Positions 8,068-59,770 of a stretch of 64,000 bases of DNA are shown one piece after another. This DNA comes from Bispira polyomma. Taxonomy: Eukaryota. Every line of letters starts with the position of its first letter. The first letter of the stretch is position 1. The notes beneath the pieces were generated by a model. The model saw only the letters and a program-made list of their open reading frames with translations. It searched no databases and was not told where the DNA came from. The stretch covers positions 7,564,001 through 7,628,000 of the forward strand of contig OZ287756.1 in the NCBI GenBank assembly GCA_965649765.1, given 5' to 3'. Made by a program: the position numbers and the translations under genes.

Positions 8068-9126
8068 TTATCGGCATAATCGTGAAATACAGTTTTTGAG
8101 TTCTTTCTTGAAGCTCTCATATTTCAGCGTGTATATGACTGGATTTAATCCACAGTTGACAAATATGAGTATATTTGCCAGTTTCTGTGCGAATTCCCTT
8201 TGATCAGACAGAAAGCCCAACAAACCAATCACTATCAGCAATGTTGCTGGTAAATAGCACAATACAAAACAGACACATACAATGAACATGGTAACTAAAA
8301 TATTATTCTGCATTTTTGAAAGCCCTCCATTGGATGAGTTAGCTGAAATTGGGGCTACTTTATGTTTATTTCTCAGTGTCAAAAAGATCTTGGTGTAGAC
8401 AAATATCATGAAACAAGTAGGAAATACCTGCACAGTCATAAACAAACTGAAGCCAAAGATAGCCTTGTGTAGGCCACTCTTCCAAAAGTACATGACTTCG
8501 CAATTGCCCTCTTGAATTCCGGACGTAATGATCAGAAATATGCCAAAGACATGTGCAAACACAAAGATGGCTAGTATCCCAACGAAGGCCAATTTCTTAC
8601 TTAAGTAGTTCTTATGCAGCACTGGCTTAGCAACCATGAAGTATCTCTCTAAGGTAATCAGCACAATGTTGTAGGTGGAGGCAATCAAGAATGTCCATTG
8701 CGGAAACTGTGACACCAAGATTCTGCAAATGATCTCGCTGTTGACGGCTAGGCCATGTGGCAAGGTGCAAATAATGAGAAACAGCCCGCACAGACAATCA
8801 AACATAGACTGACTTTTGATGAAGATGTTGGTCAACTCTTGGTTCATGGTTTTGTTCCTTGACAGGACAATCAAGACAAATAGGTTGCCGAAGAAAATGA
8901 AGAGACCAGTTGGATAATTGAGGATAGCAATATGAGTTTCCCATTTTGTTCCACTCGGTAAAGGATCATTCATTGCAGTTGTATTGCTGTTGGCAGATTT
9001 TGCGATGTTGGTGGCATCATCTGTGATAGTGACCATCATCATATGAGAACTCACGTATGTAGATTGGCTAAAAGGGGACTGATAAAATAATGACTCAGTA
9101 ACTGCTGTTTGATTTGCCATGTTCAT
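8068..9126 (-). CDS. Intronless rhodopsin-family (class A) GPCR, orphan peptide-receptor-like
   Basis: Seven hydrophobic segments with TM1 GN, TM2 QSxxD, TM3 C...ERY, TM5 P, TM6 CFxxCYLP and TM7 NPVIY, plus N-glycosylation sites in a Ser/Thr-rich N-terminus. The start is placed at MNM (9126) rather than the ORF-track start 9228 because of the paralog alignment and the TATA box. Confidence 0.93.
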   Translation of the reverse strand: MNMANQTAVTESLFYQSPFSQSTYVSSHMMMVTITDDATNIAKSANSNTTAMNDPLPSGTKWETHIAILNYPTGLFIFFGNLFVLIVLSRNKTMNQELTNIFIKSQSMFDCLCGLFLIICTLPHGLAVNSEIICRILVSQFPQWTFLIASTYNIVLITLERYFMVAKPVLHKNYLSKKLAFVGILAIFVFAHVFGIFLIITSGIQEGNCEVMYFWKSGLHKAIFGFSLFMTVQVFPTCFMIFVYTKIFLTLRNKHKVAPISANSSNGGLSKMQNNILVTMFIVCVCFVLCYLPATLLIVIGLLGFLSDQREFAQKLANILIFVNCGLNPVIYTLKYESFKKELKNCISRLCR

Positions 9127-9206
9127 TTCTAACAAGCTGACCTGATACATGTAGTCTGTAGGATGCAAAAGGGAGAACTGATGATTTCCCACCTTGACGG
9201 TCCTGG

Positions 9207-9214
9207 TTTTTATA
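9207..9214 (-). promoter_or_regulatory. TATA box of the GPCR
   Basis: GGGTATAAAAACC on the minus strand, conserved with 186-193. An Inr-like TCAGTT lies at 9176-9181. Confidence 0.6.
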
Positions 9215-12200
9215 CCCATGGCAGACACAAAAACAAATGACCATTGTCAGTATGGATTAAAGATACTGTGTGTTACTCACTCTAAGTTCACCAATTATCA
9301 GTCTGTTAATTAACAGTTATTCTTTCTCATTGGTATAGAACTGGACAATAATAACACATCCTTTTATTTTGAGTCTAATTTTCAATTAGCCTTTGTTAAT
9401 TATAGGGAGGCCCGTGCGATGGTCTTTGTCAACCAAGGTTATAATGCTTTTTGACTGGCCTCAGCGAAAAAGGAAACAATATACATGAAGCTGTTTTAAA
9501 AGAATGAATTATTCACAATCTAGTAATTCCTCTGCAATTAGTCATCACTACAATGGATGCATTAGCTCATAACACAAGGATTTCTCTTGGTGAAGAACTT
9601 TACATGCAGGCAATCACAAATCTGACAATTATCTGCATTCCGAAAATTGTAGCGCAATTGTTTCATACTACAACCTATGTAATCTATCCAATATCTGGTT
9701 AAAAATGGAAATTTGTGCTAAGATGATTTTGTGATAAAATGATTACTTTCTAAGGGGCCTTGGATAGTGTATTTTATTTGCCAGTGAAAGTTTTAAAATG
9801 TTGTCAGTGCAAATTTATTCCTAAAAATTGTAAAGTAGTAAACTTTTGATTCTACCTAAAATTCTTCTATTTTATGATTACTGAAATGGATGTGGTAAAT
9901 GACTCTGGCAATATTTAGAAAGCTATTTCCAATATCACACTAATATAAAGATACGTCTATCACCCTGAGACATGACTGAATGGTAGCATCTACAATATAT
10001 TTATAGAATCTCTATAAATGCTGTTATTAGAGAGGTTTCGTGCTATGTTTCCAACTCTTTATACTTAAACTGGAATAGGTATGTTGGAGAGATAAGCCAT
10101 CCATAAAAGAAGTAGAGGTTTCATGGGACGTTAGTAAACCCAGCTAAAACTGTACCCTACAAATGCACATATTATTGGCCTTGCCTTGTGTCTTAAACGG
10201 GCCTGTTGTAACTATTACACAGAATTTTAAACTAAAAGTCAGAACGAGCATCCTTACACAATCTTTGTTAGAATTATATGACTTCAACATTTTTATAAAA
10301 GATAAGTGTGACCACTTTCGTACTGACACCATGTAATACGTAAATTAGCATAAGTATTGGACTTATGACGTAGAAAAAAGCATGTAATGCCCTAATATTT
10401 TTATTTAAATATGTCACAAAACTTTTGTGATATCTAAATCTAACATTGTACCAAATTTATTTGCAATAAAAGTTATGTTAAATCATAAATATATTGAATA
10501 AATTTATTTGATAAAAAATTAACAACTTGGAATAGAAGTTTTTAATCATGTAAAAAAACTTGGAAACTGTTCTTAAATTTTAAAAAATAAAATAAAACTT
10601 TTAAAACAGGACAAATGACAGTCATCAAAATATTACCATCTTTATTTTAAAACCCTGAGCATTACAATTCTAATAACACAAAACTAGAAAACAATCAATA
10701 CTCACACTACATGCTTTACAACATACAGTGTTGAGGGTGGTTATTGTAGGTGACATAACAAGGCCAACCCAGAGCAACGATTGGGCAGAAATACAGAGAG
10801 AATTGAAATTTATGTCACACACAATAGCAAGATGCGGCGAGAATTTAGGGTGACGTGGAGGTTGGGGTTTGTTGCAGAAATAAAATTGGCTTTTTGTTAA
10901 AGTCTAAGATTGGGGTAGAAAACTACTATTGATTGTGTGTGATAACAAATATTTTTCCAACAAAATTTCCCAGTGATGAAGGCAAAAGGAATTAAATTAT
11001 TCAATAAAAATTGCTGTGACAGTGACCAAGTACTGAAACATAAAAACCGAATTTGTGTGATGCATGAATGATGCAAATAATATGAAATATATCAAATGAC
11101 AAGATATGAAACAAACGTTGGTTCCAATCCTGAATATATATTAGAAAGTGGTAAAGCATAAACAGTGTTAAATGTGGAAAGTGAAAAAATGTGATCGTTT
11201 GCCACAACGTGAATGGAGTAGCTGTACAGTAAAATATTACATAAAAATATTAGGAAACTATGGAAGTACAAACATAGGGGTTTTCACAGAAGACGATATG
11301 CTGTAATATATGTATTGATTTCAAATTAAAATTGACATCAAAAAGCTTAATCAAATAGAAATGTTATCATATTTGGAATTTATAGTATGAATATTTGCTC
11401 AGCGTTTGATTTTATCATACATATAAGACATGTATATCATTGTAAACATTAAATGGATCCATGTTGTAATAATACTTGCAGATGATGTGGCTTTGATGTG
11501 CCATTCGTAGGACAGATAAATGGTTTATTGATACAGATTATATCATAAAAGTAAGATTGGTACCATTGACTGAATGGTTTATTGTAAACTATTTCATGCC
11601 TCTGATCAAATGAAAAACAAGCAATAAACCATAGATAAAGTTTGCTGTTACTTTTGAAATTTTACATATAGGAAGTTGTTGTTTTAGGTAAGTATAATAA
11701 ACTAAAACTCAACTTTGCTAAAACAAGTGAACACTTAGGGCCGTATTCTCATACCAAGATCAATTCTGACTCAAGCTCTTTGCCAACGTCTCCCTATTGC
11801 TGGTGAGAGGAGAGATGTGACTGCATATTTGAATTCAGCACTAACTGCTCCATTAAAATAAATAGTCACAAGTATAGGATATATATATATATATGCACCG
11901 GAGTAATAAATAGGCTTCACTTATCTTGAGTTGGAGCTTGAGTTTAGTAAGATGAAACAGTCCCTGGGATATATTTGTGTAAGTGTATAGGAAATATATA
12001 TTAAATAAAATATTATATTAAATATATATATCAGCAGGCATAAGATACACATAATGCATCAGATGCAGTGTATTTATACAGGATATATTACTGCTTCAAG
12101 CTTTGCTTAATATATGGATACACAACGATCTACAACTACTTACATACAAAGTTCTTGGATCGGATAATTACAGAAATAAGTTAATATATGATATCTTAAA

Positions 12201-40496: not shown

Positions 40497-40674
40497 GGCC
40501 AGTACAGAGAAATTTGAGAGGGAAGTAAACCTAGTGGTAGACTACAATGGTACAGTCAGGTGGTATCCACACAGAATCTTCTACAGCACCTGTTCTATTG
40601 ATGTCAGGGATTTCCCTTTTGACAACCAGACCTGTCACCTGTGGTTTGGTTCCTGGACCCACAAAGTCTCGCAA
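40497..40674 (+). CDS. Cys-loop LGIC exon 4 (loop E, Cys-loop, loop B)
   Basis: CSIDVRDFPFDNQTC Cys-loop and FGSWTH. CATAG| acceptor and |GTATGC donor. Confidence 0.95.
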
Positions 40675-41504
40675 GTATGCTATGACTGATGTATTTGTTT
40701 AGTTTCTTACAAAAGCCATTGACATATATCCTGTGATAATTTTTGTTTTCAATTTTTAAAATAATTGTTAAAAAGCACACCCAGCGGAGCACATTCCTGA
40801 TCAATCTCTGCACCAAACTTCATGTGTCTATTTGGTTCAGTAGTTTTTGAAGTATAAACCTTAGGATAAACAAATAAGAGGAACATGGTCCCAAAATGTG
40901 TGTGGTAAAAAATGTAAGTAGACATGTGAAAGACCTGTGTTTTACAATGCAGAAAGTCTTGACTTGAAGTGGTGAAAGATGTTAAACCCAAGTTAAACAT
41001 AGCTAAATAGACAGATGTCTTCTGGCACTGTGCCTCTATATTATGAACCCTCCTGCTCAGACTGAGATAAATATGTGTAAGATGTTTGAAGAACCTGTTG
41101 GTCTTTACCATATTGTTTTTTGTTTTTTTTTGTTTTTTTTAGGGGGGGGGGAGACTTTTCTTACACCTCTGCAGTTGTGTGTTATAATATTTGTTACTTT
41201 CTTGAAATATATTGAATTTTCTCTCGTATTTTGCACTTTTAAATCCCCTTTTTGATTCAATATATCTTCTAATGCGTGACAACAGAATCAATAAACTATT
41301 CGACAAGTCCCCAAAACATAGCCAGGTCATCAGGAAGGATGTGGGGTGTACTTGGAGGGAACTAAGAGAGGTACTATAGTTTGGAGAGATACGTTTTCTT
41401 CTAAACACAGAAAGTGTTTCTTGTGGTCTAAGCTCAACTGGGGAACTTTTACATAACATGGGGTCAGCGATATTGAGAAAGCTGTAGATCAAGCTGTATT
41501 AGTG

Positions 41505-41546
41505 ATTAGGGTTAGGGTTAGGTTAGGGGTTAGGTTAGGGTTAGGG
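41505..41546 (+). repeat. Short interstitial (TTAGGG)n-like tract
   Basis: About seven imperfect TTAGGG/TTAGG units. Confidence 0.75.
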
Positions 41547-44500
41547 AACAGAGGAAACATAAAACCTATTTGCCCTCATGAGGTTGTTCAAAGACAGACG
41601 AGTAGTCAGGTAGGAGGGCTGTTGATAGAGACAACGTCTACGAAAGTTTGAATATTGCCATCATTAGCAGTACCATTGTTAAAGGCCGGTTGTATGCAGT
41701 TTAGAAATCCTTTTACAATATGATACATGATATACAGTTGTTGAACATCACTACAACATTCACTATGTATTAGCTTTACAAAAAGTTATGGTAGTGTCCC
41801 AACAATAGTTAGTGTTTATATAAGTCCTCAGTAATGACACAAAAAGTCAAGTTACTTGTACCAGTTTCAATGTTTTTTACACTAATTCTTTTCAGTCTCT
41901 GTGAAAGGGTTCTTTTACTAATCTACAACAGTTCCATTAAACCAAGCAGGCAGCTCTGCGTAAACAGATTGCAAATGTTCTATCGCCATTTCTATTAAAA
42001 GTTAAAGGGCATCCATTGTAGATAAAAAACATATCTAAGGCATTTCATTCTACTGGTTAATGTATTCCATGCGATAAGTTAATCCATAAGGATTTAGCCT
42101 CTCACTTATCTTGGTATTATCTTGTTTAGTGGGCAGCTGATGAAAATGACACTTAGAAGCTGTTGCTAAAGTTACAAATTGAAATAAAACACAAAGGACC
42201 TTGGCACAAGGCAAGGCCATGAATCTCCCACACTGATTTTATATTCTCTTTTATTTCCCTTTTTTATATTCTCTTTTTCCCTTATTTCAAACAATGCCTG
42301 CAAATCCAAGTCATTATTTAAACAGCAGCTTTTTCCAAACAAAAATTACACATTATATGTTGCCATTGTCAAAAGATGAAATTGCAAAATTATTTGACCA
42401 TTTTCAAAAGAAAACTTGTTCCACATTATTAAAACAGTAGATAATATGACTTGTATATATTTTAATATAAACTCCAGATGAGCAATTGTAGATGGACAGG
42501 GTTGGTTAAAGTGTGTCATAAATATTTTATAACATCTTACAAAATACATTTTAATCACGTGGTAATGTCTTAGTCTTTAATAATATAGATTGGTTTGCCA
42601 CACAAAAAGATATAAAAACATGTAAATGTAGTGGTCTCCCATTGCTCTAGCCATCATAAGGTCCTCGGTTCGACTGCCAGTAGGAAGTTGAAAGTTCTGG
42701 TGATCAGAAGGTCCACGATTTCGACTACCGGTGGGAGGGGGAGGGGTTGGTGATAAGAAGGTCCCCGCTGATTAGAAGATCCCTGGTTCAACGGTCGGTG
42801 GGGAGTTGGTCTGGTGATCAGAAGGTCTCTGGTTCATATCCTGCTAATGCTGCTATTTTTATTGGCGGGATAACATCCTTGGGCAAGATGTAAATATGCC
42901 ATTGCCTATTGATGACAATTCAGGCCTTGTGTCGGACACATATTTGGTTTTATTGGTTCGGTCGATGCACTTTTGAAGATTACCTGCCTCAATGAAGCGT
43001 GTTAAAAATATTTATATAATACAATACGGTACAAAATATATATATATAGTTGTGATAATCAACTGTGCAGAGATTAACTCCATAGAATATACAAAGCTAT
43101 TTTAATAGTGAATACCAGATGTGCTGACTCTACAGCTAGGATCACATTTCTAGACATAGAAAAGAAACTATTGCTGCTTTTAATCACATGTTTGTATCAT
43201 GCATTATTCATCCCCTATTGTGACAATGATATAAATTCATATATGATTACTTTTTTCAATCTCATTTTGTGTTGTACTCCCCCCTTCCCCCCCCCCCCCC
43301 CCCCCCCCCCCCAGTCATTAAACTTTACAAATAACCATTTCATACAGAAACATTTGACATTTACCCGGTCTATCGTTGAAAAGACAAACGTGACAATGTA
43401 AGAAACTTCTTTCTGTTTTATAATTACACTAGATTCGGTTACTGATTTTCATCTGAGAACTTATTATCACGTCTGTTTGCAAAAAATAAAGTATTCATCT
43501 TAACACTAGACCGCCTGGTGTTACAGTAAATTTTTGAGATAGAAGGACAAAACATATTTAATTACCTTTTTAACTCATTCATTTATTTGAAATAGAACGG
43601 TGTACAAGGCAGCAAACAATATACCACATTCTGTTCATTGGGATTCTAAAACAGCCAATAAAAAAATCCAAACCACCAACCAAATCACCAAATAGGTATC
43701 ATTAAGCAGACTTATTGTACAAAATACCCCATGAACCATGTAATCCCTGTTCACAATTTCCAGATTATTATGGACTAATTTAAAAAAAAAAGAAATGTTT
43801 ACAGCTCCTGTAAAAGAGTTGCTTCTAGACTTATGCTTAGTATATAGCTCTAAAGGAATTATAACCTTTACCTCTTTCAATCCCTATGTTTTTGGATAGT
43901 CGCTGACGGCATTTATTACTCCCAGAACCAGCAAATAGTCAACAACCAAAAAAGGTATCATTTTCCCCCAGTTTTGTCGCAATTGGTAATTATTAGTTAT
44001 TATTTAAGAAAAATATATATGACGCTGTTTTTGAATGCCTGAACTAGTCTCTAGTGTGTGTTTTAGTGACACCAGCTATCTGTGACCCATTTGCTTGAAA
44101 AATTTCCTTACGTTCCGAACAATAGTTTTTTCAGGGGGTCGAAAGGATTAATGCAAGATGGCAGGTTTTTGCAATATTCAAAGTTACAATTGCCCTTCGT
44201 GTTAACAATTTCGAAGTATCAATTAACATTTTTGTAACTGTAAAAGAACATGCAACAGATAACTATAATTGGTCTAAGTTTGAGACAAAGGCTTAATTAT
44301 GACCAACATTTGTTGTTGAGCATCCCACTAAGGGTAGGCTATTTGATGTGGTCAATTGAGCCAGCACACCCCTCAACACATTTAACCAATCACCCCATCT
44401 TTAGTTGTTACCAATTGAGTTTTAACAGGGTGATTTTTAAATGCACATATTTTTGTCTATTGTGCCATTAATTTCTGTTTGTGTGGTATTCACAGTGCTA

Positions 44501-47500
44501 GTTAACATTTTAGTCCATGCTGAAGTACAGTCAACCTGCACCAGTAAACTCTGAATACAAAGGCTTGATTTTTTTTTTTTTCGAAAAATATTTTTATTTA
44601 CCCTTTTTGTAAAAATGTGTGGAAAAATTCTGGGAAAGCGAAAGTACCAACCCTCCATCAGAATTATTTACATGTGCATTTCTCATACACAGTATGAGAC
44701 AAAAACATTGAATGTATAATAATCTGTCTATACATATATATTTACAAATATTAAGTATTGATATTTATAATACATAAGCAATATACTATTACTGTGTAAC
44801 CAGATATTATATTATAATACAGAGGCTTGATGATTATCATTTATCCAACACCTTAGGTTGTTAAGCCTGCCACTGGCGATAGAATCCAATGAATTACATT
44901 TTTAAGTGGTCATGTGAGAACCTGTGTATGTGCCTGTGCCTGGGAGCCCCAGGATGTGACCAAACCCAGGTCATCTGTGTTCCTTAACGAGTGCATTATC
45001 TACTAGGCCACAATGGCAGATGTTACTCCACATAGCTTTATTTAAAGTCCAGGACAAGCTTATCATGCAAATTTAATTGTAATTGTAGCTTAATTTTTAA
45101 TTCAATGAAAAAAGTGTACAGTTGCCAGGAATATATCTTTTAGAAATTAAAACAAATTAACCTTTATACATCATTGAAATTCTTCAAAGCTGAATTGATC
45201 AGAGTGGATGAGTTAAAGTAACACTTAATATCAAAGAACAGATAAATATAGGTCATGTTCTTCGATGAAAAATGGGAAGCAAAGGCCACATTGGATACTG
45301 ATCACTTTGCTTATCAACTCTAATACACAGTGGAATATTCCATCAAAAAATGCTACTGATCTGAACCAAAAATAAAACAACAAAAAATGATGTTAAATGA
45401 TGTATCATACGTGCTATGTCACAGAAATTGCATATTCTTTGTGAACATATTAACCACTAATAGACCAGCAATAAAAAATTTCTTAATTCTTTCCACTATT
45501 ACTATAGTATTTGGAATTGGTTGTATTTTGGATAATTTTCAGATAATTCAGGTAATTCAGAGTAATGGTCTGTTTGTTGCTATTTTATGAATATTCCTGG
45601 GCCAAATGAATAACCCAAGGCCCTTTATAGGTGGATAAATTTTGTCATAATACAACAAATACTTATCAATAATAGATGTATTTTGTTAATGTTTGTAAAA
45701 AAAATAGATGATCAAATGTCTCGATTGACTTCTTGTCCTTGTCAGGAGCAGAACAAAATAAAATGAAACACCAAACTAAATATGCCTTATACTCTTTTTT
45801 ACTTCAAAAAATTACTGGAATCACGTGTAATAATAACCACGATTCCATAATTCCTAATACAATTGCAATTCAAATTTTAAAAATTCCATTTTTTATGTTT
45901 GAATTATTTTGGCCTCTGCATAACATACACAAAAATGTAGAAGAGACAAAATTATAGAAGACCATTTACAGGGACAGAGTCAATCGTTTCTATTTAAGTG
46001 CCATATACTTTATCACTATTTACATTTGCAGAGAATTTTGTTAAGTTTGTCGTCAAGATCAGAAACGTTCTTAAAATCTTCTAGTGTCGCCCGCCGCTTA
46101 TATCCTGTATATACAAATTTAAACATTTCTGTGACTTGTGCGTTACAAAATGATGTTTTAAATTGGGTACATGATATGAACGGCAAGAAGATGGACCATA
46201 TATTTCCATTTCAGATAATCCTTCCATTCATTGTCCCTGTTTGGTTAGCTGTAGACGCCAGTACTGCCTTGATGAATAGGTGGATTACAAGCTGATTTTA
46301 TAGCACAAATAAATGCCTTAAACTAAAATTAATGATACATACTTTGTGAGGACAATGCCTTAAAAATTTGGAAGACATCAGTTTGGTATGGTTAATCCGG
46401 ATTTTCAGATAAAGTGAGTTCGGATAATCGATGATATATGTATATATATAAATATAAGTATAATTAAATAAAAACATTCATTGCAAGTTTGCTATGAAAA
46501 GGGATATTGTTACCTTAAAATGTCATTGTAAATAAGCTTCGAAATTATACATGTTAAGGTCATCACAATACCATTTACATCTATCTAGTTTTCCCCAAGG
46601 ACATAGACATGCCAACCATTTTCAATCAGACTTCAAAGAGACACTTGGAGGCCTGGAGGTCATTCAGATAATTTGTATGAAGGACAAATATTAATGCCTG
46701 TTCTGTCACTGACCTTACTAAAGACAGAAATGTAATAATAGATCTACCACAGTGATGTATAAACTTAAGTCTTTTCTGGCTTTATCTAAAACTTTTCTGA
46801 ATCGATGCCCCTTGTGTTATGGAAAAGTCTGCCTATTGAGATTGGATCACTAGCAACACTTTCTGGGTTTACGAATAAAAATTAAATGCTATCTCTTCAA
46901 ACTCGCTTAATCACCTTAGTTCCCTCCCTGCACACCCTATATATCCTACTGTGCTACCTGGCAATGTTTTTTTTTTTTACTTTTTGTTTGGTTAATATGT
47001 ATTCTGTTATTAGACTTTAGAAAATGCCTCACACCAATAAGGAACTTTAATACTGCAAAATACAATACACAACAATGTATATATAAATCTAGACTGGGAA
47101 TTCTGTAGCTGTGACGCAGTCCTGTTTGTTTGCAAAATGACACAAAGAAAAAGGTGTACCTTATTGACAGAATAATATGTTACTACACATAGAGCAACAC
47201 AAAATGTAGCCTTTTACAAGACTCGTGACCGAATATTCTGTCGCCAATGATGACTTTTTTACTGATGGATAGCTGATTGGCAACAGAGCGGCTTCCATTT
47301 AAAACTTAGTAAATCCAAATCGGCATATATAGAGATAGAATCTGGTTAAAATAAAATAATACCCTTACTCCTTATATATGATATAGTAGCCGATTTTCTG
47401 TTATTTCATGCCGACATGGCACATGTCAAGTAGTACAAAGTAAAAACTACAGCCACAAATATTGGCACGTAGTCCTAAATTTACAACATTTTTGTAGCAG

Positions 47501-47819
47501 TATCCGTTCTGTTCCTTTTCATGATTCCATCATCAAAATATCAGCAAGGAATCTCGATAAGTGGGACAGATTATTTGGTCTAATATAAATCTAACTTGTG
47601 CCATATTTTTGTTTCAGTCAGTTGTGTGGTGGTAGTAATACAGTTGACGAGTTAAAATCTTACCCCTGGTGTGTGTATCAGGGAAAGCTGACAGTAAACG
47701 TGCCTGAAGATATTGGTAGTTTTGCAGACTCTGCAAACCTTGTACCAAATACAACTGTTCTATTATTCTCTGTCAGTAAACTAACTGCTGGTGGTGCTAT
47801 GAATGATAATAATAATAGC

Positions 47820-50050
47820 TAAATTTATATAGTGCAAATATCAGAGTAGTATTTCTGTTCACAAGCGCTTTGGCGATGATAATGAGACAAAAAGAATATG
47901 TACATGTACAATATTTTAGATTAAATTTGCATACAATAAGCTCTTCTAAAAAGATATGACTTGATATGAATTGTTTTTTGAAAGATGTCACCAATTCACA
48001 GTTTCGTATGTCTTCAGGGAGTTTATTCCAAAGTTCTTGTGGTGCTTTTTTAAAGGGTTTGTCACCATTTCTCTTTAAGTTGGTTTTGGGGTATTGTCAG
48101 TAATGAGTCACTTGTGGAGTGAAGTGTATGTGTTCGATTATATGGAGTAAGAAGGTCAGTTTGGTATTTTGGTACCCTGCCCTTTAGGCATTTGTAAGTG
48201 ATAATAATTATAATATATCAGACTTTTTTAGCACTTATTTTCATTGTAACGAATTCTAAGGCGCAAAAAACCACAGCCAGAGTAAAAAAACATAGGTGAT
48301 AGACAGAAGGGAGTCGTCATCAATGCCTCCACCGAAAACGGAAAAGAGATTATGGAGGGAATGCATCATTGTACAGATAGGTCTTTTAACTGGGCCGGAA
48401 GGAATACAAGGGATGGAGCTGTCCTAATGTGTTGAAGCAAACTATTCCATAGGGTAGGGGCATCATTTGCAAAACTTTTATCAAAGTGAACCTTTGACCT
48501 GTGTACTTTGGACAAGGAGTAGTTTGTAGTTTGAGACAAGGAGTAGATTGTACTGAATCCTCTCTTCTTTTGGAAGCCAGTGTAATTCAGTCAACATTGG
48601 AATTACAGGGTCAAATTTTTGGCCACCTAGGATTAATTTTGCTACACAGTTCAGAACTGACTGTAATTTATTGAGCTGCTTCTTCGGACATTTGTGGAGC
48701 AGACAATTGTATAGATCTAAGCGAGAGGTTACAAAAGCATGCACTAGGATTGTGCATGCCCTTTTGGTCAGATATTTTCTAATTTTATTAAGGTTTCTTA
48801 GACGACTCCAAGCTGGTGCTGATATGTGATTAATTTGATGCTGTATACTTAGTTATGAGTCCAGATAGAGGCCAATGTTTTTCACAAAGGATTTAATCAC
48901 TATGTTTTTGGGCTTCAACATAGTTTTGTCATCATTCAGTTTTAGAAAGTTTGATGTCATCAATTTTTACACATCTTTGCAGCATCTTCCAACTCGTAAA
49001 ACTGCGTTTGTTACTGCATTTTCCTTGCCTACCTTGAAGTGAACATATAATTGGGAGGCATCCACGTAGAAGTGGGGTACCACCAAATGTGATCTAATGA
49101 CTTTGCCAACTAGCTCTGTGAAGTCACCTGGTCCCAAAATAGACCCTTGTGGAACATTCAGTTTTATGATGGCTTCCTTTGATAGCATGTTTTTCACTAG
49201 CAGTAGCTGTCTCGGTGCTGTGATATTGGCGATATACAGATTGTGATGTTTCCAGAAGGTTATGTGAATCCTTGTATGCATTTAATGTAGCTGAAACTAC
49301 TTTTTCCAGTAATTATGATGCAACTGATAGATTTCAAATGGGACGAAAAATTTTCAATTTCTCTGTATCAAGTGTTTCCTTATTTAGTAAGGGAGTCATA
49401 ACTGAACATTTAAAACACGATAGAACAATCCCTGATTTCAATGATAGGTTGATAATCCTTGCCAGTACAGTTGTAAAAGTTCTGATACCTTTTTTAACCA
49501 CACTTGACTAGGTAGGACTAGCTTTTCAATTTCCTCTTCTGTTGTTGGCACATTAAGGGTCAGAGTGGAATGTGCTGGATAATCAAACATGTGTGGGTCC
49601 TCTCCAATTTGCTCACTTAACAAAATTGATTGTATTTTGTCAATTTTTTTAATAAAGAAATTATTGAAATTTTTAAGCGGGGAGGCTTTAACACCACTTG
49701 CCACCTTTTTGTTCTTTTTCTTATGTGCTAAAGTGTTCACCATTTGAAATAATTTATTCTGATCTCCAGCCGAGTCTGCTATGATTTCAGTGAAGTATGC
49801 TTTTTTTCCTTTTTGAGATAACGCTGGTTGCTTTGTTTTTGTCATTTTTTTATGCATGGTTGGTTTTAGTGGATTTGTTGCCTTTCCATCTTCTTTCAAA
49901 TTATTGTCTTTCTGACACAATCAACTATGTTGAAAAAGCAATGTTTAGAAAACCTGAACCAAACAAAGTATATGTACACATCTATGCGCTTCCGATATAC
50001 GACGCTGATTTGCAAAAGCAATTTTTTGTATCCTTGTCTAGTTGTTCACA
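47820..50050 (-). mobile_element. Cluster of L2/CR1-type LINE fragments
   Basis: HAFVTSRLDLYN...LHWLP, NVPQGSILGP, HFYVDASQLY (cf. YADD), and KAYFTEII...QNKLF...FNNFFIKKIDKI. At least two 3' ends are present. Confidence 0.85.
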
Positions 50051-50522
50051 TGTGTCAAACTGTAAATTGTGACACATGTCTAGTGGCTTCCAAACCTGAA
50101 AAGATAGGGTAAAAATGTGAAACCAAACTGTCCAGAGTGATAATCCAATATTTTTTAGGGGTGAAAATTAGGGTCCGGGATATCACTTGTCGAAAACTGT
50201 TCCGGTTCCAGGATACCGGCTATAAAAAAACCAAATATTGCTAATCTAACGCGCCTTCGAGAACAGGAAGTAATTAAAAATAAATCAAAACAACATGTGC
50301 AATATGCCTAGAAAGCAGCAAAAAGTTGATATGTCAATAATCTACAAATATAAACCTATTCTTATGTTTCCCTGTCATATTGTCATTAAATCGCTTGAAT
50401 GTGAACAAATATTTTTGCGTCGCACTTCGCAAATCGAACATAGGATATCGGAGGCCACATACATGACATGTGTACGTGGACTAAAACTAAAATTCCCCTC
50501 TTGTTTGGTCTATATTTACCAG

Positions 50523-50784
50523 ATAGACCTGCATCTAGATATCCCAGAAGGCATAGACCTGACCACCTACCAGTCAGACTTCAAGGCGACCTCCAAGTGG
50601 GACATCACCGGTGTGCAGGCTGACCGGATGGTGGACGAGATGGCTGTGTTGACCTTTACCTTGTACCTACAGAGGAGGATGATCTTCTCCAGTTATATCC
50701 TCACCTTCCCAGTTATATTTATGTCCTTCCTCACCCTCCTTGTCTTCTGGCTGCCATCTGATCATGCAGACAAGAGTAATCTGG
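50523..50784 (+). CDS. Cys-loop LGIC exon 5 (loop F, short loop C, M1, start of M2)
   Basis: ACCAG|IDLHLDIPEGIDLTTYQSDFKATSKWDITGVQADRMVDEMAVLTFTLYLQRRMIFSSYILTFPVIFMSFLTLLVFWLPSDHADKSNLG|GTAATT. Confidence 0.93.
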
Positions 50785-52239
50785 GTAATTAAGGGTGCAT
50801 TCCACTTTTGCGACCTCAACCATCAATTTTGGGGCCGAAGTAAGCAACCTACAAATCGTACTAGTCGGAACCCGATATTTAGTAATCACTCGAGTCCACG
50901 TTGCTTTATCAACTTGCCCCTAACTCAACTAGAACTCTGGGGGACTAATGCGATCACAGCCAGTATCTTTTTGTTCTCACCAAGATAGCTGTAATGTTAT
51001 ATTGTATTATTTCTAAATCACCTTACCCATGGAAGATAAAGTTTGTAAGTGTATTTTCAGTGATTTTTAAGGATCGAAACAGCCTTGAGAACGTATTACG
51101 TCCTATCTTTATAGCTTCCATGGGGGCTCTAATTAGGCGTGCACAGGCAAGTGCTTAGTGGTCCTCTCCTGATTTAACACCTTGTGTTTTACACAGTATC
51201 GAACTTTGAATCAGAATATAATTTAAGTAATAAAATTACCTTGTGGTGGGAGATTTGTAGGTTTTGTAGCCATAAAGGTACCCAATTGAAAGTTTGGAGA
51301 AGTTTTTACTGTACAGGAAAGATAAGTAAAAGATAAGTAAATATCTAGATGTTTTAAAGTATTGTAGTGCTTGCACTTCACAAAGAAGTTATAAAAAGTG
51401 AAAGCTATAGTATCAGTAGTCTTTCAGAAATTTGCATTTTAATTAATGTCACAGTGTGTTAGAAAAAAAACTAAACATAGGCACACATTCTGCTAGATGA
51501 TGCGTCATAAAAGATTAACATTTTGAAAGCACAAATGTACGTATACATGTTTAGTAAATGCTTGCTTCCTAGAATTCTAAAATGAACCATTTTTTGACTG
51601 CGTAAGTACATGAACCACCATCCAGTGCCAGTATCTGTCACATTTTCCTAACTGAATACAGAAGTTTTAAGATAAGTATATAACAACATCCCCAAAGTTT
51701 TGTAGCTTGATATTAGATAAATATACTGACGACCGCCATTTTTAGCCACAATGTATCCGTCTGTTCTAACTAGGCTGTGATCAACCATTATTAAGCTAGT
51801 GTACTGTCCACTAGGCCATAAGCCAGTGTGCCTCATAGGTGACAAAAATTGCATTGACAGTGTTGCAATCATTTGTTGGTAATTGTCTCCATTGTTCGTG
51901 TGCAGTCACCTGGGGAAAGAAACACAACAAATGCGGCCTTCCAACGCCATCGTTGAGACAGTAAGATGACACCTAGAAGACATACATGAAATACCAAAAG
52001 AAATTTAGGACAGAAACTTTTTGCGATTACACAACATTTAATATCGCGACTTGTCACCTAACCAATTCTCCCAAGTGGGATTGGGCCATATTAGTGGTAA
52101 CAGTATCAACAATCTTGGCAATGTGTAAATTTTGTTCTCCAGCCATATTCCAACAGTACACTATATTTAATAAATTTACAGGTTATGTACATAGCCGATT
52201 TAGTTGTGTGATCATTTTATAACTATTATTAAACTCTAG

Positions 52240-52326
52240 GTATGACCATATTCGGTAGCCTTTTGCTACTTTTGCTGATTCTGGTGGAAGCTGCGCCCCC
52301 CACGAGTGCCGCCATTCCAAAGTTAG
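52240..52326 (+). CDS. Cys-loop LGIC exon 6 (M2 and M2-M3 loop); not in the ORF track
   Basis: CTAG|(G)MTIFGSLLLLLLILVEAAPPTSAAIPKL(G)|GTAGGA, 87 bp, phase 1 to phase 1. Confidence 0.92.
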
Positions 52327-54122
52327 GTAGGATTATTTTCTTATACAATATAAATATTTGTGTCTTAAAGACATACCAGTGTAGCCAATCACCTTTTAAT
52401 AATAATATTTAGTCTAGTCAAGAAGAGGCTACGAGAACTTGTAGTGCCTGATATATTTCATTGTGTAAAAATATATTTCGACCTCATATCATGAATTATG
52501 TCTCATCAGAGGCTGGGGTAGTGTATCGTCAATAGCCCTAAGGTACAAAAATGGTGTCTGGTTTTATCCAGTGTTATCCGGTGGATATCACATCTTTTAT
52601 CCTGTTTATTCTGTTTAGTTTCCAGTTTTGCAGGATATTTTTATATGAATTGTGCATAAACCAAATACAAATATGCAACAATTCTTAGTCAATATGTTGA
52701 CTTTAAATGAATAGTAATAAAGCATCTTATGAAGACGGTTTCCTTGGTGACAAACTCGCATTGCATTCTGACCCATTGCGATGTAATGTCTTATAACAGA
52801 TCACCCTTCAAGTTTGAATAATAATATAAAGTAATGTAAAGTAATAAAAAGTATGTAGATTTACTGTAAAAAAATAAGGAAGTGCACGCCACAGGAGATA
52901 CATACCACATAAAATATAACAGTGGGATTTCAATTACTCTTCTCTGAGATTTTGAAGGGAATGCTTCTAACACCTAGACTGCGGTTCCCCCTACTCATAT
53001 TTTAACCTGTTCACAACTGTATAGTATTCCACAGTACAGAAGGAGATTCACAGGTTAACAGGTTCCAGATAAGTGTTGTCGGTAAAGAGCGACTAACACA
53101 GTAGAACCTGGCATATCATTACCGCTTCATGTATATTTCTATAAATATAGAACTACAAAATAAAAATATAGTATATGGCTGTTGACTGATAGTCAATAGA
53201 TATACCTTCTCCAAAAAGGGTTTGGTGTCAACTTGCGAGTCGGAATGCGAGGTTGGCGGAATGCAATGTGGGAAGCACTAATTCATATCGACACTTCTTG
53301 CATTGTAATTGATATATTTACAATTGTAATATATTCATGTCATGTAAACGCCCCCCTTACCCAAATTTAAAAAATTAAAAAATATTTACAATAGTATTTA
53401 ACTTATATTTTGACAGCAGCTTGAAGTGTGCATAACAATTTAAGATCAGTTGCACTTTTCATTTATATATATGCTGCAGATGGTTAAGATAAATAATTTT
53501 TTTTTTTTTTTTTTTTTTTGGGGGGGGGAGTTATCTGTTTATGTGTTTCATTAATGTAAGAATGACTTAGCATTTGCTAGTGTTAATCAATGTACATACT
53601 ACATACTATCAATCTAACGTTTATAGCTATTTTATGCTGGATTAACCTTGTCAAAGTATGTTTAGCAATACATCCGGCTTAACACAATCTATCTTATTCC
53701 GAAAATCACTAAGAACAGGCCACGAGGAAGAGTTACTATGCATGTAATAGGTGGGACATGACCCGGTTGTAAATTGATGGAAAGTGATATATACAAACAA
53801 GTATTGGCTTCCAATTTACATTTACAATGAGTCATTTTTGTCTGTTTGTTTTTGTTATGTTTTTGTTTATCATTATACCTTAACATATTCAACTATCATG
53901 AAAAACAAAAGTTTCAGCCACTTGGGAAATATTTCACGTTAAGATTAGATATAAATCATGTAAATACATCTATTTTACACTATTTGGTAGATTAAACACC
54001 GAAACAGCTTTCAGGGATTTTCTACTGTTTTAATATTGTCATTGTGATACTATTTTCTTTGTTTTCAGGGCTTTGCTACTGTTTTAATATTGTCATTGTG
54101 ATGCTGTTTTCTTTGTTTTCAG

Positions 54123-54250
54123 GGCTTTACTACTGTTTTAATATTGTCATTGTGATGCTTTCCATATTCCTGTCTTCATTAATTGCACATATTGGGGGCG
54201 CCGGGAAACCAATGAGAGCACGAAAACCAGTACCTGCTTGGCTAAGAAAG
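54123..54250 (+). CDS. Cys-loop LGIC exon 7 (M3, MX helix); alternative in-frame acceptors at 54015 and 54069
   Basis: TTTTCAG|(G)LYYCFNIVIVMLSIFLSSLIAHIGGAGKPMRARKPVPAWLRK|GTATGC. Confidence 0.9.
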
Positions 54251-57052: not shown

Positions 57053-57197
57053 TTGCTGAGGATGTCAGAAAAGTCCCCCATCAGATGCAATTCCAATGGT
57101 GTAGCACATAAAGCCTATTCCAAAAACAAAGGCTCAGATGAAGAAATGGGACATCTTCTCGACATATTTAAGTCAGTGTCGACTGAAGGTTCCTCAG
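57053..57197 (+). CDS. Cys-loop LGIC exon 8 (intracellular loop)
   Basis: TTGTTCTAG|LLRMSEKSPIRC...STEGSS(G)|GTGAAA. It bridges phase 0 (exon 7) to phase 1 (exon 9). Confidence 0.7.
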
Positions 57198-57413: not shown

Positions 57414-58608
57414 GTGCTCGTATTTACAAGCACTTCAATGGAAATAGGTTCTAAAGAAAAATTAAATACTAATATTGAATCAGATAGGAGAGATTTGAAT
57501 TGCACACAAATTTCTTTTCTTGTGAACTGGAAACTATATGTGCAAATTCAACTACCCGACACCCAACACTTGATATAGAAAAGATTTAGCCTCCATAATC
57601 CTCTTGATATACAAACTATTAATAAGTAGGTCCCCCCGCCCCCTCTGTCTCATTGGGTAAAATTAAAGAAATTTTTAATGGAGATATTTGTACTGGTACT
57701 GTAACAGTTAAGGCCCACGAGGAAAAAAGGTGAATATACAAATATTGTATTGAAAGCAAAATGGCACACTAAATGCACCAGTATATTAATAGAACATTTA
57801 AAAAACAATCTGTAAACCATTTATTTCCAGCCAAACAATAGGTGGGTTTAACTGTTGTAGCACTAGTAGTCGATGTTACATACTTGATCGGTTCAGATGT
57901 GATGGGGGCGGGTGTGGATCTCTATTTAGTTTGGGATTTAACATCACTTTCGAACATGTTTTGTGTCATGTTATCACTGTCAGGGGAAATTAGAGCCGGG
58001 TATATAGTTTGTCACGGTCTTTGTAAAACGACTGGCCTTCAGCGAGTCTACTGTAGGGATTTATTCCAGCACCATTGAATCTCATGTCGTGCTTATGGGC
58101 TGCTTGATATAGATTGCTGAAAAGAATGGCCGTCACTATCATTTTTCTTGATATATAAACTACTAGTAAATATCTATTTATAGCATACATTTGCCATCAC
58201 TAGCTTCCCTGAAACATTTTTATACACCACACATATACCCGATGAAAATAACTACAATGTACCAATACTTGACTTTTGGTAAGTCTAGTATGTATGGTTT
58301 ATAGCTACAGATAAGCTGTGTTCAGCACTAGAAGGGTACATTACTATAGAGTAGTTGAGTAGATCTTCAATAGACTGTTACCCAGTGTGTGGTACTACAA
58401 TGCACCCATACTTATTGTTTTGTTTGTTATTTTATTATGATTGTGGATGATTTCAAGCTACAGAGAAGCTGTGCTCTGCACTTAAAGGGTTCATTTATTG
58501 AGAGTAGTAAAATAGATCTTTAATAGACTCTTACCCCGTGTGTGGCACTTGCAGTGCATCCATACTTGGTCTTTTTGTTAATTTATTATTATTGTTTATG
58601 ATTTCTAG

Positions 58609-58796
58609 CTACAGAGAAGCTGTGCGCTGCACTACAGGGGTACATTTCTCAGAGAAAAGTGGACGAGAAGCGACAGCAGGAAATTAAGTGCGTTAACCAA
58701 GACTGGACTTACGTAGCCACAATGTTGGACAGGATCATTATGTTCATCTACTTACTGGTCATTATTGCATCACTCATATGGTTGTTCCCGCAATGA
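58609..58796 (+). CDS. Cys-loop LGIC exon 9 (MA helix, M4, stop); not in the ORF track
   Basis: TTCTAG|(A)TEKLCAALQGYISQRKVDEKRQQEIKCVNQDWTYVATMLDRIIMFIYLLVIIASLIWLFPQ*. DWxxVAxxLDR is diagnostic for this family. Confidence 0.93.
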
Positions 58797-59199
58797 AAAA
58801 TGAGATAAAAAGGAATGACATGTAACTTTCACTTCAGTAATAATATCCAACAGTCGGTGGACGGCATTGATGTTTGACAGAAGCAGAGAACATTGGAAGT
58901 AAAAGATTTCAAGATAATGGCCTTTCAATGCAATAGATTTTCAGAGACTATGATCAGACAATTATCTCAAGACTTTTTGTTGACCCAAATACTGTAATAT
59001 TATATAGGTTTCTATTTATATGTTTTAGGTGCAAGTTAGTTGTAATAATTGCCTTCTTTTACCTGGTCAATGCCGAAAGAGTCTTGAAACTGGATATTTT
59101 CATCTGAGAGTGGAAACTTTGTTTTTTTAAATACTCCACTTAAATAATTATTATGCAGCTGAAGGTAACACTAAGCAATAATACATAAACATATATTAT

Positions 59200-59770
59200 G
59201 TTACCTGAGCTGTAGGACCTCAAAGTCACACATTAATTCTGTTATTTGAGCTGTAGGACCTCAAAGTCGCACATTAATTCTGTTATCTTAGCTGTAGGAC
59301 CTCAAATAACACATTTTGTTATCTGAGCTGTTGGACCTCAAAGTCACACATTAATTCTGTCATTTAGGCTATAAGACCTCAAAGTCACACATTAATCCTG
59401 TTATCTAAGCTGTAGGACCTTAAAACCACACATTAATTCTGTTACCTGAGCTGTAGGACCTCAAAGTCAAACATTGCTTCTGTTACCTGAGCTGTAGGAC
59501 CTCAAAGTCACACATTAATTCTGTTACCTGAGCTGTAGGACCTCAAAGTCACACATTAATTCTGTTATCTGAGCTGTAGGACCTCAAAGTTACACATTAA
59601 TTCTGTTACCTGAGCTGTAGAACCTCAAAATCACACATTAATTATGTTGCCTGAGCTGTAGAACCTCAAAGTCATAGTCATTACGTTACCTGAGCTGTAG
59701 CACCACAAAACCCAAGAATTCTGGCACCTCAGGTATAGTACCTCAAAGTCACACATTAATTCTGCCGCCT
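59200..59770. repeat. 41-bp minisatellite, ~14 copies
   Basis: Unit GTTACCTGAGCTGTAGGACCTCAAAGTCACACATTAATTCT, head-to-tail with no spacers. Confidence 0.95.

Follow-up and report, generated by a model that had tools for sequence, protein, structure and literature searches.

The nicotinic acetylcholine receptor (nAChR)-like gene analysed here occupies a part of a 64,000-nucleotide stretch of the Bispira polyomma genome, hereafter the window (C9:7564001–7628000 of the 1.035-Gb genome). With a probability of about 0.5 its product may be regarded as a secondarily derived non-α subunit, which would co-assemble with YxCC-bearing members of its own, AChRB/ACC-related clade. Its short loop C is a true feature of the gene and no assembly error, and the trees place the gene within a radiation that lacks the YxCC motif and appears to be nested among YxCC-bearing genes, probably as a sister group to the AChRB/ACC anion-selective nAChRs.

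Gene structure

Eight coding exons, all bounded by GT-AG, were identified on the plus strand between positions 28640 and 58797 (~30 kb). Joined by their coordinates, they yield a frame that stays open for 427 residues up to the stop codon and contains the Cys-x13-Cys loop, ligand-binding domain and four transmembrane helices of a Cys-loop receptor. The length of 449 aa given in an earlier note on this DNA was not confirmed by this frame, in which the first exon is not found: a signal-peptide exon must lie upstream of 28640–28823, and two scans together with a comparison with the 10 kb upstream of a paralog at C9:1.04 Mb provided no convincing candidate.

Residue names such as K145, Y151, L119 and P121 follow what we take to be the α7 numbering. 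The first identified exon (28640–28823, 70% identical to that of the paralog) runs from the N-terminal helix to loop D with its Trp codon at 28812, and the second (38940–39049) carries the WxPD motif and loop A (Tyr codon 39042). The third (40497–40674; PF02931, E 6.8e-18) encodes loop E, the Cys-loop (Cys codons 40591 and 40633), Trp at the K145 site (40642) and the loop B Trp (40654). The fourth (50523–50784, 91% identical to the paralog) comprises a lengthened loop F, loop C, M1 and the M1–M2 linker with the codon of −1' Asp at 50769. M2 and the M2–M3 loop, with Gly at 9' (52254) and Glu at 20', are encoded by the exon at 52240–52326; M3 and the start of the intracellular loop by that at 54123–54250; the intracellular loop by the least certain exon, at 57053–57197 (36% match to the paralog's exon); and the MA helix, M4 and stop by the last one, at 58609–58797.

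Some exon borders are embedded in tandem repeats. A 54-bp unit present in 2.8 copies at 54009–54159 spans the acceptor of the M3 exon and creates three in-frame acceptors (54015, 54069 and 54123); an upstream one, if used, would lengthen the product by 18 or 36 residues that repeat the beginning of M3. A 153-bp unit (2.4 copies, 58291–58655) makes a duplicate of the last exon's acceptor and initial codons, and a 41-bp array of 14 copies is situated just past the stop codon (59195–59764). The 10-kb intron contains, at about 31000–35700, fragments of a tyrosine-recombinase (DIRS-like) retroelement in several frames, with weak RT/RNase H and integrase SAM-like Pfam matches below cut-off. The intron preceding the loop C exon harbours on the minus strand (47800–49920) a high-copy repeat with very high read depth and no Pfam match, which presumably is a broken non-LTR retroelement. 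Apart from the receptor gene, the minus strand of the window carries an intronless frame of a rhodopsin-family GPCR (8071–9246, 392 residues; PF00001, E 1.1e-29), the start of which is echoed at 76–231.

Short loop C as a feature of the gene

The span from the β9 Trp, the codon of which starts at 50598, to the Arg-Arg pair ending at 50678 on the plus strand comprises 27 residues, as counted already in the earlier note, and contains no Cys-Cys and neither of the loop C tyrosines; its tip is deleted and the second tyrosine site is occupied by Met (50640). The lengths given there for comparison, about 33 residues for α7 and about 30 for β2, proved each to be off by one column: in the same aligned columns α7, α6 and other YxCC subunits have 34 residues and human β2/β4 have 31, so that the gaps amount to 7 and 4 residues.

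All of loop C is encoded within one exon, flanked by AG at 50521–50522 and GT at 50785–50786. Additional loop C sequence with YxCC, the finding that according to the earlier note would overturn its idea, was searched for in the genomic window: tblastn with five proteins, four of them YxCC-bearing, revealed no second loop C exon, and a scan of 40675–52239 (plus strand) for the motif gave a single match in a proline-run stretch. A hidden or alternative YxCC exon was rejected on this basis; a weak GT after the β9 Trp has no loop C exon downstream to join. Contigs assembled from two runs (X1 and X2) of one sample, possibly the window's own, cover 49873–51911 with zero differences, while the read contigs available over the locus (three runs) contain no splice joints and are uninformative on splicing.

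The loop C exon, the fourth of the eight, has 35 matches in the genome. The best one apart from the exon itself belongs to the paralog at C9:1.04 Mb, which is 91% identical over this exon, possesses the same 27-residue loop and has matches to all eight exons. Over seven exon cores (350 codons) the two genes differ with pN 0.11 and pS 0.72, giving a dN/dS of 0.049, a rough ratio because synonymous sites are near saturation. The gene is old and under purifying selection. A word-index search with the exon alone gave 21 candidates, none at E≤0.001 for so short a query, and a full HMMER scan gave 146 matches.

Loop C length among relatives

The loop span was measurable in 130 of 186 sequences, and 69 of the measured rows, some of them isoforms or near-duplicates, were assigned to the clade of the window gene. 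Cys-Cys is absent from 63 of these 69 rows, in which the span varies from 24 to 38 residues: 42 have 32–34, seven have 37–38, and only four, after removal of one artefact, have 28 or fewer (24, 27, 27 and 28). In all six rows retaining Cys-Cys the span is 34–35. Artefactual values were 20 (C9:21.49 Mb, where an intron gap conceals a true span of 30), 22 (P0032) and 26 (P0153); P0022, P0078, P0032 and P0153 were scored as "other" in the loop count though they are clade members. Thus the window gene ranks among the members of its clade with the shortest loops, though it has company there: besides the paralog, spans of 28 and 30 are found in the same genome at C9:8.48 and C9:21.49 Mb, on separate branches. 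An nAChR-like subunit with a short loop C, as the gene was described at first, therefore stands, whereas the lone oddity it was thought to be does not.

Short loops occur outside the clade as well. The nematode non-α subunits UNC-29 (Trichinella) and ACR-2 (Aphelenchus) have a span of 26, orphans from Mactra, Tegillarca, Patella and Mya (bivalves and a limpet) have 27–29, and Octopus CRT1 has 28, so the shortness taken earlier for something special is equalled or surpassed in ordinary accessory subunits. Changes of other kinds were noticed too. At C3:79.94–79.95 Mb (L013, L060) there is a YxCC-less relative with loop C lengthened to 37 residues and the loop B Trp also lost, for which a rebuilt site can be argued more strongly than for the window gene; P0061, P0088, P0099, P0119 and P0161 have a span of 38. 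Further independent losses of Cys-Cys with loops of full length were registered in α-like genes of the cation clade at C10:17.38, C2:22.99 and C3:46.79 Mb (L017, L097, L089).

Phylogenetic position

Two mutually consistent trees were built, a quick one of 52 rows (four short rows dropped) and a careful one of 29 chosen rows, with paralogs represented by gapped rows stitched from tblastn matches; vertebrate β2/β4, DopC and CRT1 are not among the rows. The careful tree joins the window gene first to C9:1.04 Mb (100/99) and then to C9:15.4 Mb (100/100, span 32). This trio belongs to an 11-row YxCC-less group (99/99), which together with a long-loop YxCC-less pair and the YxCC-bearing pair of C9:6.29 Mb and Dimorphilus 8695 forms an internally unresolved clade of 15 rows (100/99); the YxCC-bearing gene at C2:52.0 Mb is basal to it (95/91). 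We call this branch PDR after its usual Pro-Asp-Arg linker. Its sister group consists of four rows with linkers of the Pro-Ala/Ser-Lys type (96/91), namely Cryptocotyle ACC-2, Capitella 218891 and two more, and both together are supported by 100/99; in the quick tree the window clade falls into an unresolved polytomy with Pro-Ala-type rows. These rows were equated with AChRB/ACC by motif and one named member rather than by functionally tested sequences. The probable kinship with anion-selective nAChRs was missed in the earlier note.

The nearest named relatives are those of the annelids Dimorphilus, Capitella and Paralvinella, and the named matches within the PDR branch in two homolog searches (22 and 21 matches) came from annelids only, which weakly suggests that the branch is restricted to this phylum. 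The β-type rows, represented by the β1-like gene of the same genome, ACR-2 and UNC-29, form a separate clade. Grouping with ordinary β-type subunits, named at first as an outcome that would speak against an unusual receptor, was tested by forcing the window trio into this clade and rejected (p-AU 2.96e-8). Classical β-type membership is thus discarded, there being no descent within the β clade and Gly standing in place of the Arg that precedes the loop B Trp in vertebrate β2. UNC-29 and ACR-2 share with the window gene a very short loop C (26), the absence of YxCC and Gly-Ser-Trp in loop B, and in ACR-2 K145 and the β10 Asp are replaced as well, but given the rejected grouping this likeness is convergent.

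At the scale of the whole genome the PDR branch includes at least ten YxCC-less genes (the window gene, C9:1.04, 8.48, 15.4, 21.19, 21.49, 32.5 and 63.56, C2:39.9 and C3:79.9 Mb), to which two worn-looking YxCC-less copies at C9:21.23 and 21.27 Mb may be added. The copies at C9:21.19–21.27 Mb (L004, L005, L010) are tandem paralogs, two of which are substituted at otherwise invariant sites and may be decaying. YxCC is present in at least two PDR genes (C9:6.29 and C2:52.0 Mb), in at least three genes of the Pro-Ala type (C6:24.2–24.4 Mb) and, by motif only, in the gene at C11:8.93 Mb. One of the Pro-Ala-type genes, at C6:24.36 Mb (L054), has two near-identical, possibly mutually exclusive M2 exons about 440 bp apart.

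The characterised channels closest to this branch are Octopus AChRB1, Lymnaea anion nAChRs, SmACC-1/-2 and Cryptocotyle ACC-2. Their group, as represented by the four rows above, is the sister clade of the branch in the careful tree (100/99), and it likewise has a non-Leu residue at 9' and a YxCC-less member, SmACC-2; the YxCC-less radiation of the window gene differs in having neither YxCC nor Pro-Ala (−1' is Asp in 27 of 27 core rows), in the loss of K145 and the β10 Asp and in a longer loop F. Octopus AChRB1 is described as an ACh-gated anion channel related to those of Lymnaea and Schistosoma and confined to lophotrochozoans (10.1101/2025.04.02.646353). Pro-Ala marks ACh-gated anion channels, and SmACC-2 is reported to be devoid of YxCC (PMC4055736).

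Binding site and pore

Residues were counted over 27 core rows of the clade, and 15 rows that bear YxCC or belong to the cation clade served for comparison. The loop D Trp is retained in 26 of the 27 core rows, the loop B Trp in 25 and the loop A Tyr in 19 (Phe in 3). The window gene has all three, as the earlier note reported, but human β2 keeps them too; so their retention is no argument for a working principal site, and neither does it support the pointer to a new ligand that was seen in it. Trp occupies the K145 site in 17 of the 27 core rows and in all three long-loop rows, but in none of the 15 rows used for comparison, which have Lys, Thr or Val. Val or Ile stands in place of the β10 Asp in 23 of 27; His replaces Tyr151 in 17 of 27 and Pro121 in 17 of 27; at the site of the second loop C tyrosine, 19 of 27 rows have Phe or Tyr and the window pair has Met. 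The window gene also has Trp at the K145 site, Val for the β10 Asp and an aromatic residue at the L119 site. Its stretch from loop B to β9 is 33 residues long; the corresponding lengths are 32–34 in most core rows, 30–31 in relatives that bear YxCC and 28 in α2. The position two residues ahead of the loop B Trp, which is Arg in β2, is Gly in the window gene and in 25 of 27 core rows; nematode non-α rows also keep Gly there.

Since YxCC is absent and the second loop C tyrosine, K145 and the β10 Asp are all replaced, identity as an α subunit was rejected, and the proposal that no canonical principal ACh site can be formed is supported by a loop C without Cys-Cys or either tyrosine. An AlphaFold model of homolog P0036 (30-residue loop), used instead of the window protein, matches nAChR and 5-HT3 structures and indicates an ordinary fold only.

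In the pore region −1' is Asp in all 27 core rows and −2' is Pro in 17 of 27; in the window gene positions −2', −1' and 0' are Ala-Asp-Lys, without Pro-Ala. Negative charge at −1' is given as the usual mark of cation channels (PMC4801368), so that the window gene may encode either an anion- or a cation-selective subunit. The 9' residue is Ser in 10, Ala in 8 and Gly in 7 core rows, with gaps in 2, versus Val in five Pro-Ala rows and Leu in 5 of 6 rows of the cation clade. A small 9' residue is therefore a trait of the clade (25 of 27 core rows), and Gly at this position loses the distinctive value ascribed to it earlier.

Possible role of the gene product

If the window gene encodes a derived partner subunit, its ancestor would have carried YxCC, this motif would have been lost at the base of the annelid radiation, and five residues of the loop tip would have been deleted later, in the ancestor of the window gene and its paralog. 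ACh would bind between loops A–C of the partner and loops D–F of the window subunit, where the loop D Trp is kept and an aromatic residue is present at the L119 site, and the short loop C of the window subunit itself would close no ACh site. Asp at −1', the lack of Pro-Ala, Gly at 9' and Glu at 20' would shift gating and push the selectivity of such a mixed pentamer away from chloride.

This assignment is favoured by the complete loss of both tyrosines, both cysteines and the β10 Asp from loop C together with replacement of K145, and by comparably short loops in the named non-α subunits UNC-29 and ACR-2 (26 residues); Ascaris UNC-29 is reported to function only with the α subunit UNC-38 (PMC2705655). 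The span drifts from 24 to 38 residues in YxCC-less rows of the clade versus 34–35 in 6 of 6 YxCC-bearing rows, and its shortening on separate branches in this genome (27, 28 and 30) is as expected of a loop freed from capping. Candidate partners are at hand in the same genome, five YxCC-bearing relatives (three on C6, C9:6.29 and C2:52.0 Mb) and C11:8.93 Mb by motif, and dN/dS of 0.049 over 350 codons against the paralog is consistent with a maintained function. A non-α member has been described in the anion clade as well: knock-down of SmACC-2 gives the same hypermotility as that of SmACC-1, though the two together produced no current in the first expression trials (PMC4055736). Other data fit a partner subunit less well. 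At least ten YxCC-less genes per two YxCC-bearing ones inside the PDR branch are a large number if all of them are mere accessories; the principal face shows conserved remodelling instead of simple decay, as Trp at the K145 site testifies (17/27 and 3/3 versus 0/15); and the site-blocking β-type Arg of loop B is missing (Gly in 25/27), though nematode non-α rows do without it as well.

The same conserved remodelling makes it possible, with a clearly smaller likelihood, that the YxCC-less radiation rebuilt its site and forms homomers or YxCC-less heteromers gated by some ligand other than ACh (an amine, protons, a metal or a metabolite). Besides Trp at the K145 site, this would account for His at the Y151 and P121 sites (17/27 each), for the stretch of 32–34 residues between loop B and β9 in most core rows (30–31 in YxCC-bearing relatives, 28 in α2), and for 91% identity of the loop C/M1 exon between paralogs despite saturated synonymous sites. 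That the Trp lines the pocket is, however, our assumption from the α7 geometry, and the window gene lacks the aromatic residue kept at the second tyrosine site in 19 of 27 rows, so little is left in it to cap a small ligand. Ligand switches are known in nAChR-derived channels, namely DopC1 (10.1101/2025.04.02.646353) and the cephalopod chemotactile receptors (CRs), and the polychaete orphans Alpo1, 2 and 4 are reported to have answered none of 33 compounds (PMC4801368). DopC channels, present in annelids too, are α9/α10-related, keep YxCC and need the loop B Asp (10.1101/2025.10.31.685654); membership among them was rejected for the window gene, which has no YxCC and has Lys in place of the Asp after the loop B SWTY motif.

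It is unlikely that the gene encodes a peripheral contact chemoreceptor convergent with CRs, the precedent invoked in the earlier note. The resemblance in loop length holds (27 residues versus 28 in CRT1, both without Cys-Cys), and CRT1 is among the solved-structure matches of the exon (E 8.8e-5), but α6, α3, α7 and β4 outscore it there, its linker is an ordinary GEK, and it does not belong to the close relatives of the window gene. CRs are described as intronless and cephalopod-enriched (PMC13174522), and a gene of at least eight exons under strong purifying selection, with two short-loop copies, is unlike a fast-evolving intronless sensory array. In gene structure such an array is approached more closely by a cluster of nAChR-like frames at C3:80.8–81.0 Mb, at least six in number and apparently free of introns, of which the one measured has a 32-residue span without Cys-Cys.

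Loss of Cys-Cys by itself does not exclude gating by ACh, because EAT-2, which has none, forms ACh-gated homomers with EAT-18 (PMC7173930). A homomer of this kind, gated by ACh or choline and perhaps assisted by an auxiliary protein, agrees with the preserved loop A Tyr, loop B Gly-Ser-Trp and loop D Trp, but seems unlikely for the window gene, as EAT-2 is stated to retain the second loop C tyrosine (PMC7173930), while here this site is Met and seven residues are gone. Finally, an assembly or splicing artefact or a decaying gene, for which the missing first exon could speak, is hardly credible in view of the open frame, canonical splice sites, identical read-derived contigs, the same loop in an old paralog and dN/dS of 0.049.

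Novelty and implications

A single gene with a short loop C matters little, because YxCC-less nAChR-like genes constitute the majority in some spiralians: 52–129 nAChR genes are reported for annelids, and only 33 of 132 oyster genes are of the α type (PMC6896357). Clades with substituted binding residues were reported in a mollusc-wide survey (PMC13174522), and the loss of vicinal cysteines in a polychaete family is already in print: in Alpo3-like nAChRs (family 41A) they are described as lost in polychaetes only (De Gieter et al. 2023, PMC10338036). This family may be the same radiation, likened to it by description and not by an Alpo3 sequence; Alpo3 itself is reported never to have been expressed (PMC4801368). 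Titles and opening lines of abstracts disclosed no account of the residues of the radiation or of its tie to the anion clade, and the supplementary trees of Courtney 2025 and De Gieter 2023 may already show it.

The point of value is, thus, the subfamily and its placement rather than the loop of the window gene. One genome offers a testable set of two YxCC-bearing and at least ten YxCC-less paralogs with spans from 27 to 37, beside characterised ACh-gated chloride channels, and the gradation that exists naturally in loop length and in the M2 motif (Pro-Ala-Lys, Pro-Asp-Arg, Ala-Asp-Lys) lends itself to comparing how ligand capping and charge selectivity evolve. Either outcome would be informative, being a second independent origin of β-like accessory subunits, this time in the lineage of inhibitory nAChRs, or a novel class of ligands. 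A broader generalisation, which we regard as rather doubtful, is that annelids possess an old radiation of at least ten genes derived from the lineage of ACh-gated anion channels, in which YxCC was exchanged for a new aromatic set, with Trp at the K145 site, a lengthened loop F and histidines at the interface, that serves non-cholinergic ligands, the 27-residue pair being its most reduced and possibly cation-reverted members. If so, the radiation would be a plausible origin of fast currents that amines or pH gate in the neurons of annelids, an example of which may be the serotonin-activated chloride response of leech Retzius cells, described without being called ionotropic (PMC12898036).
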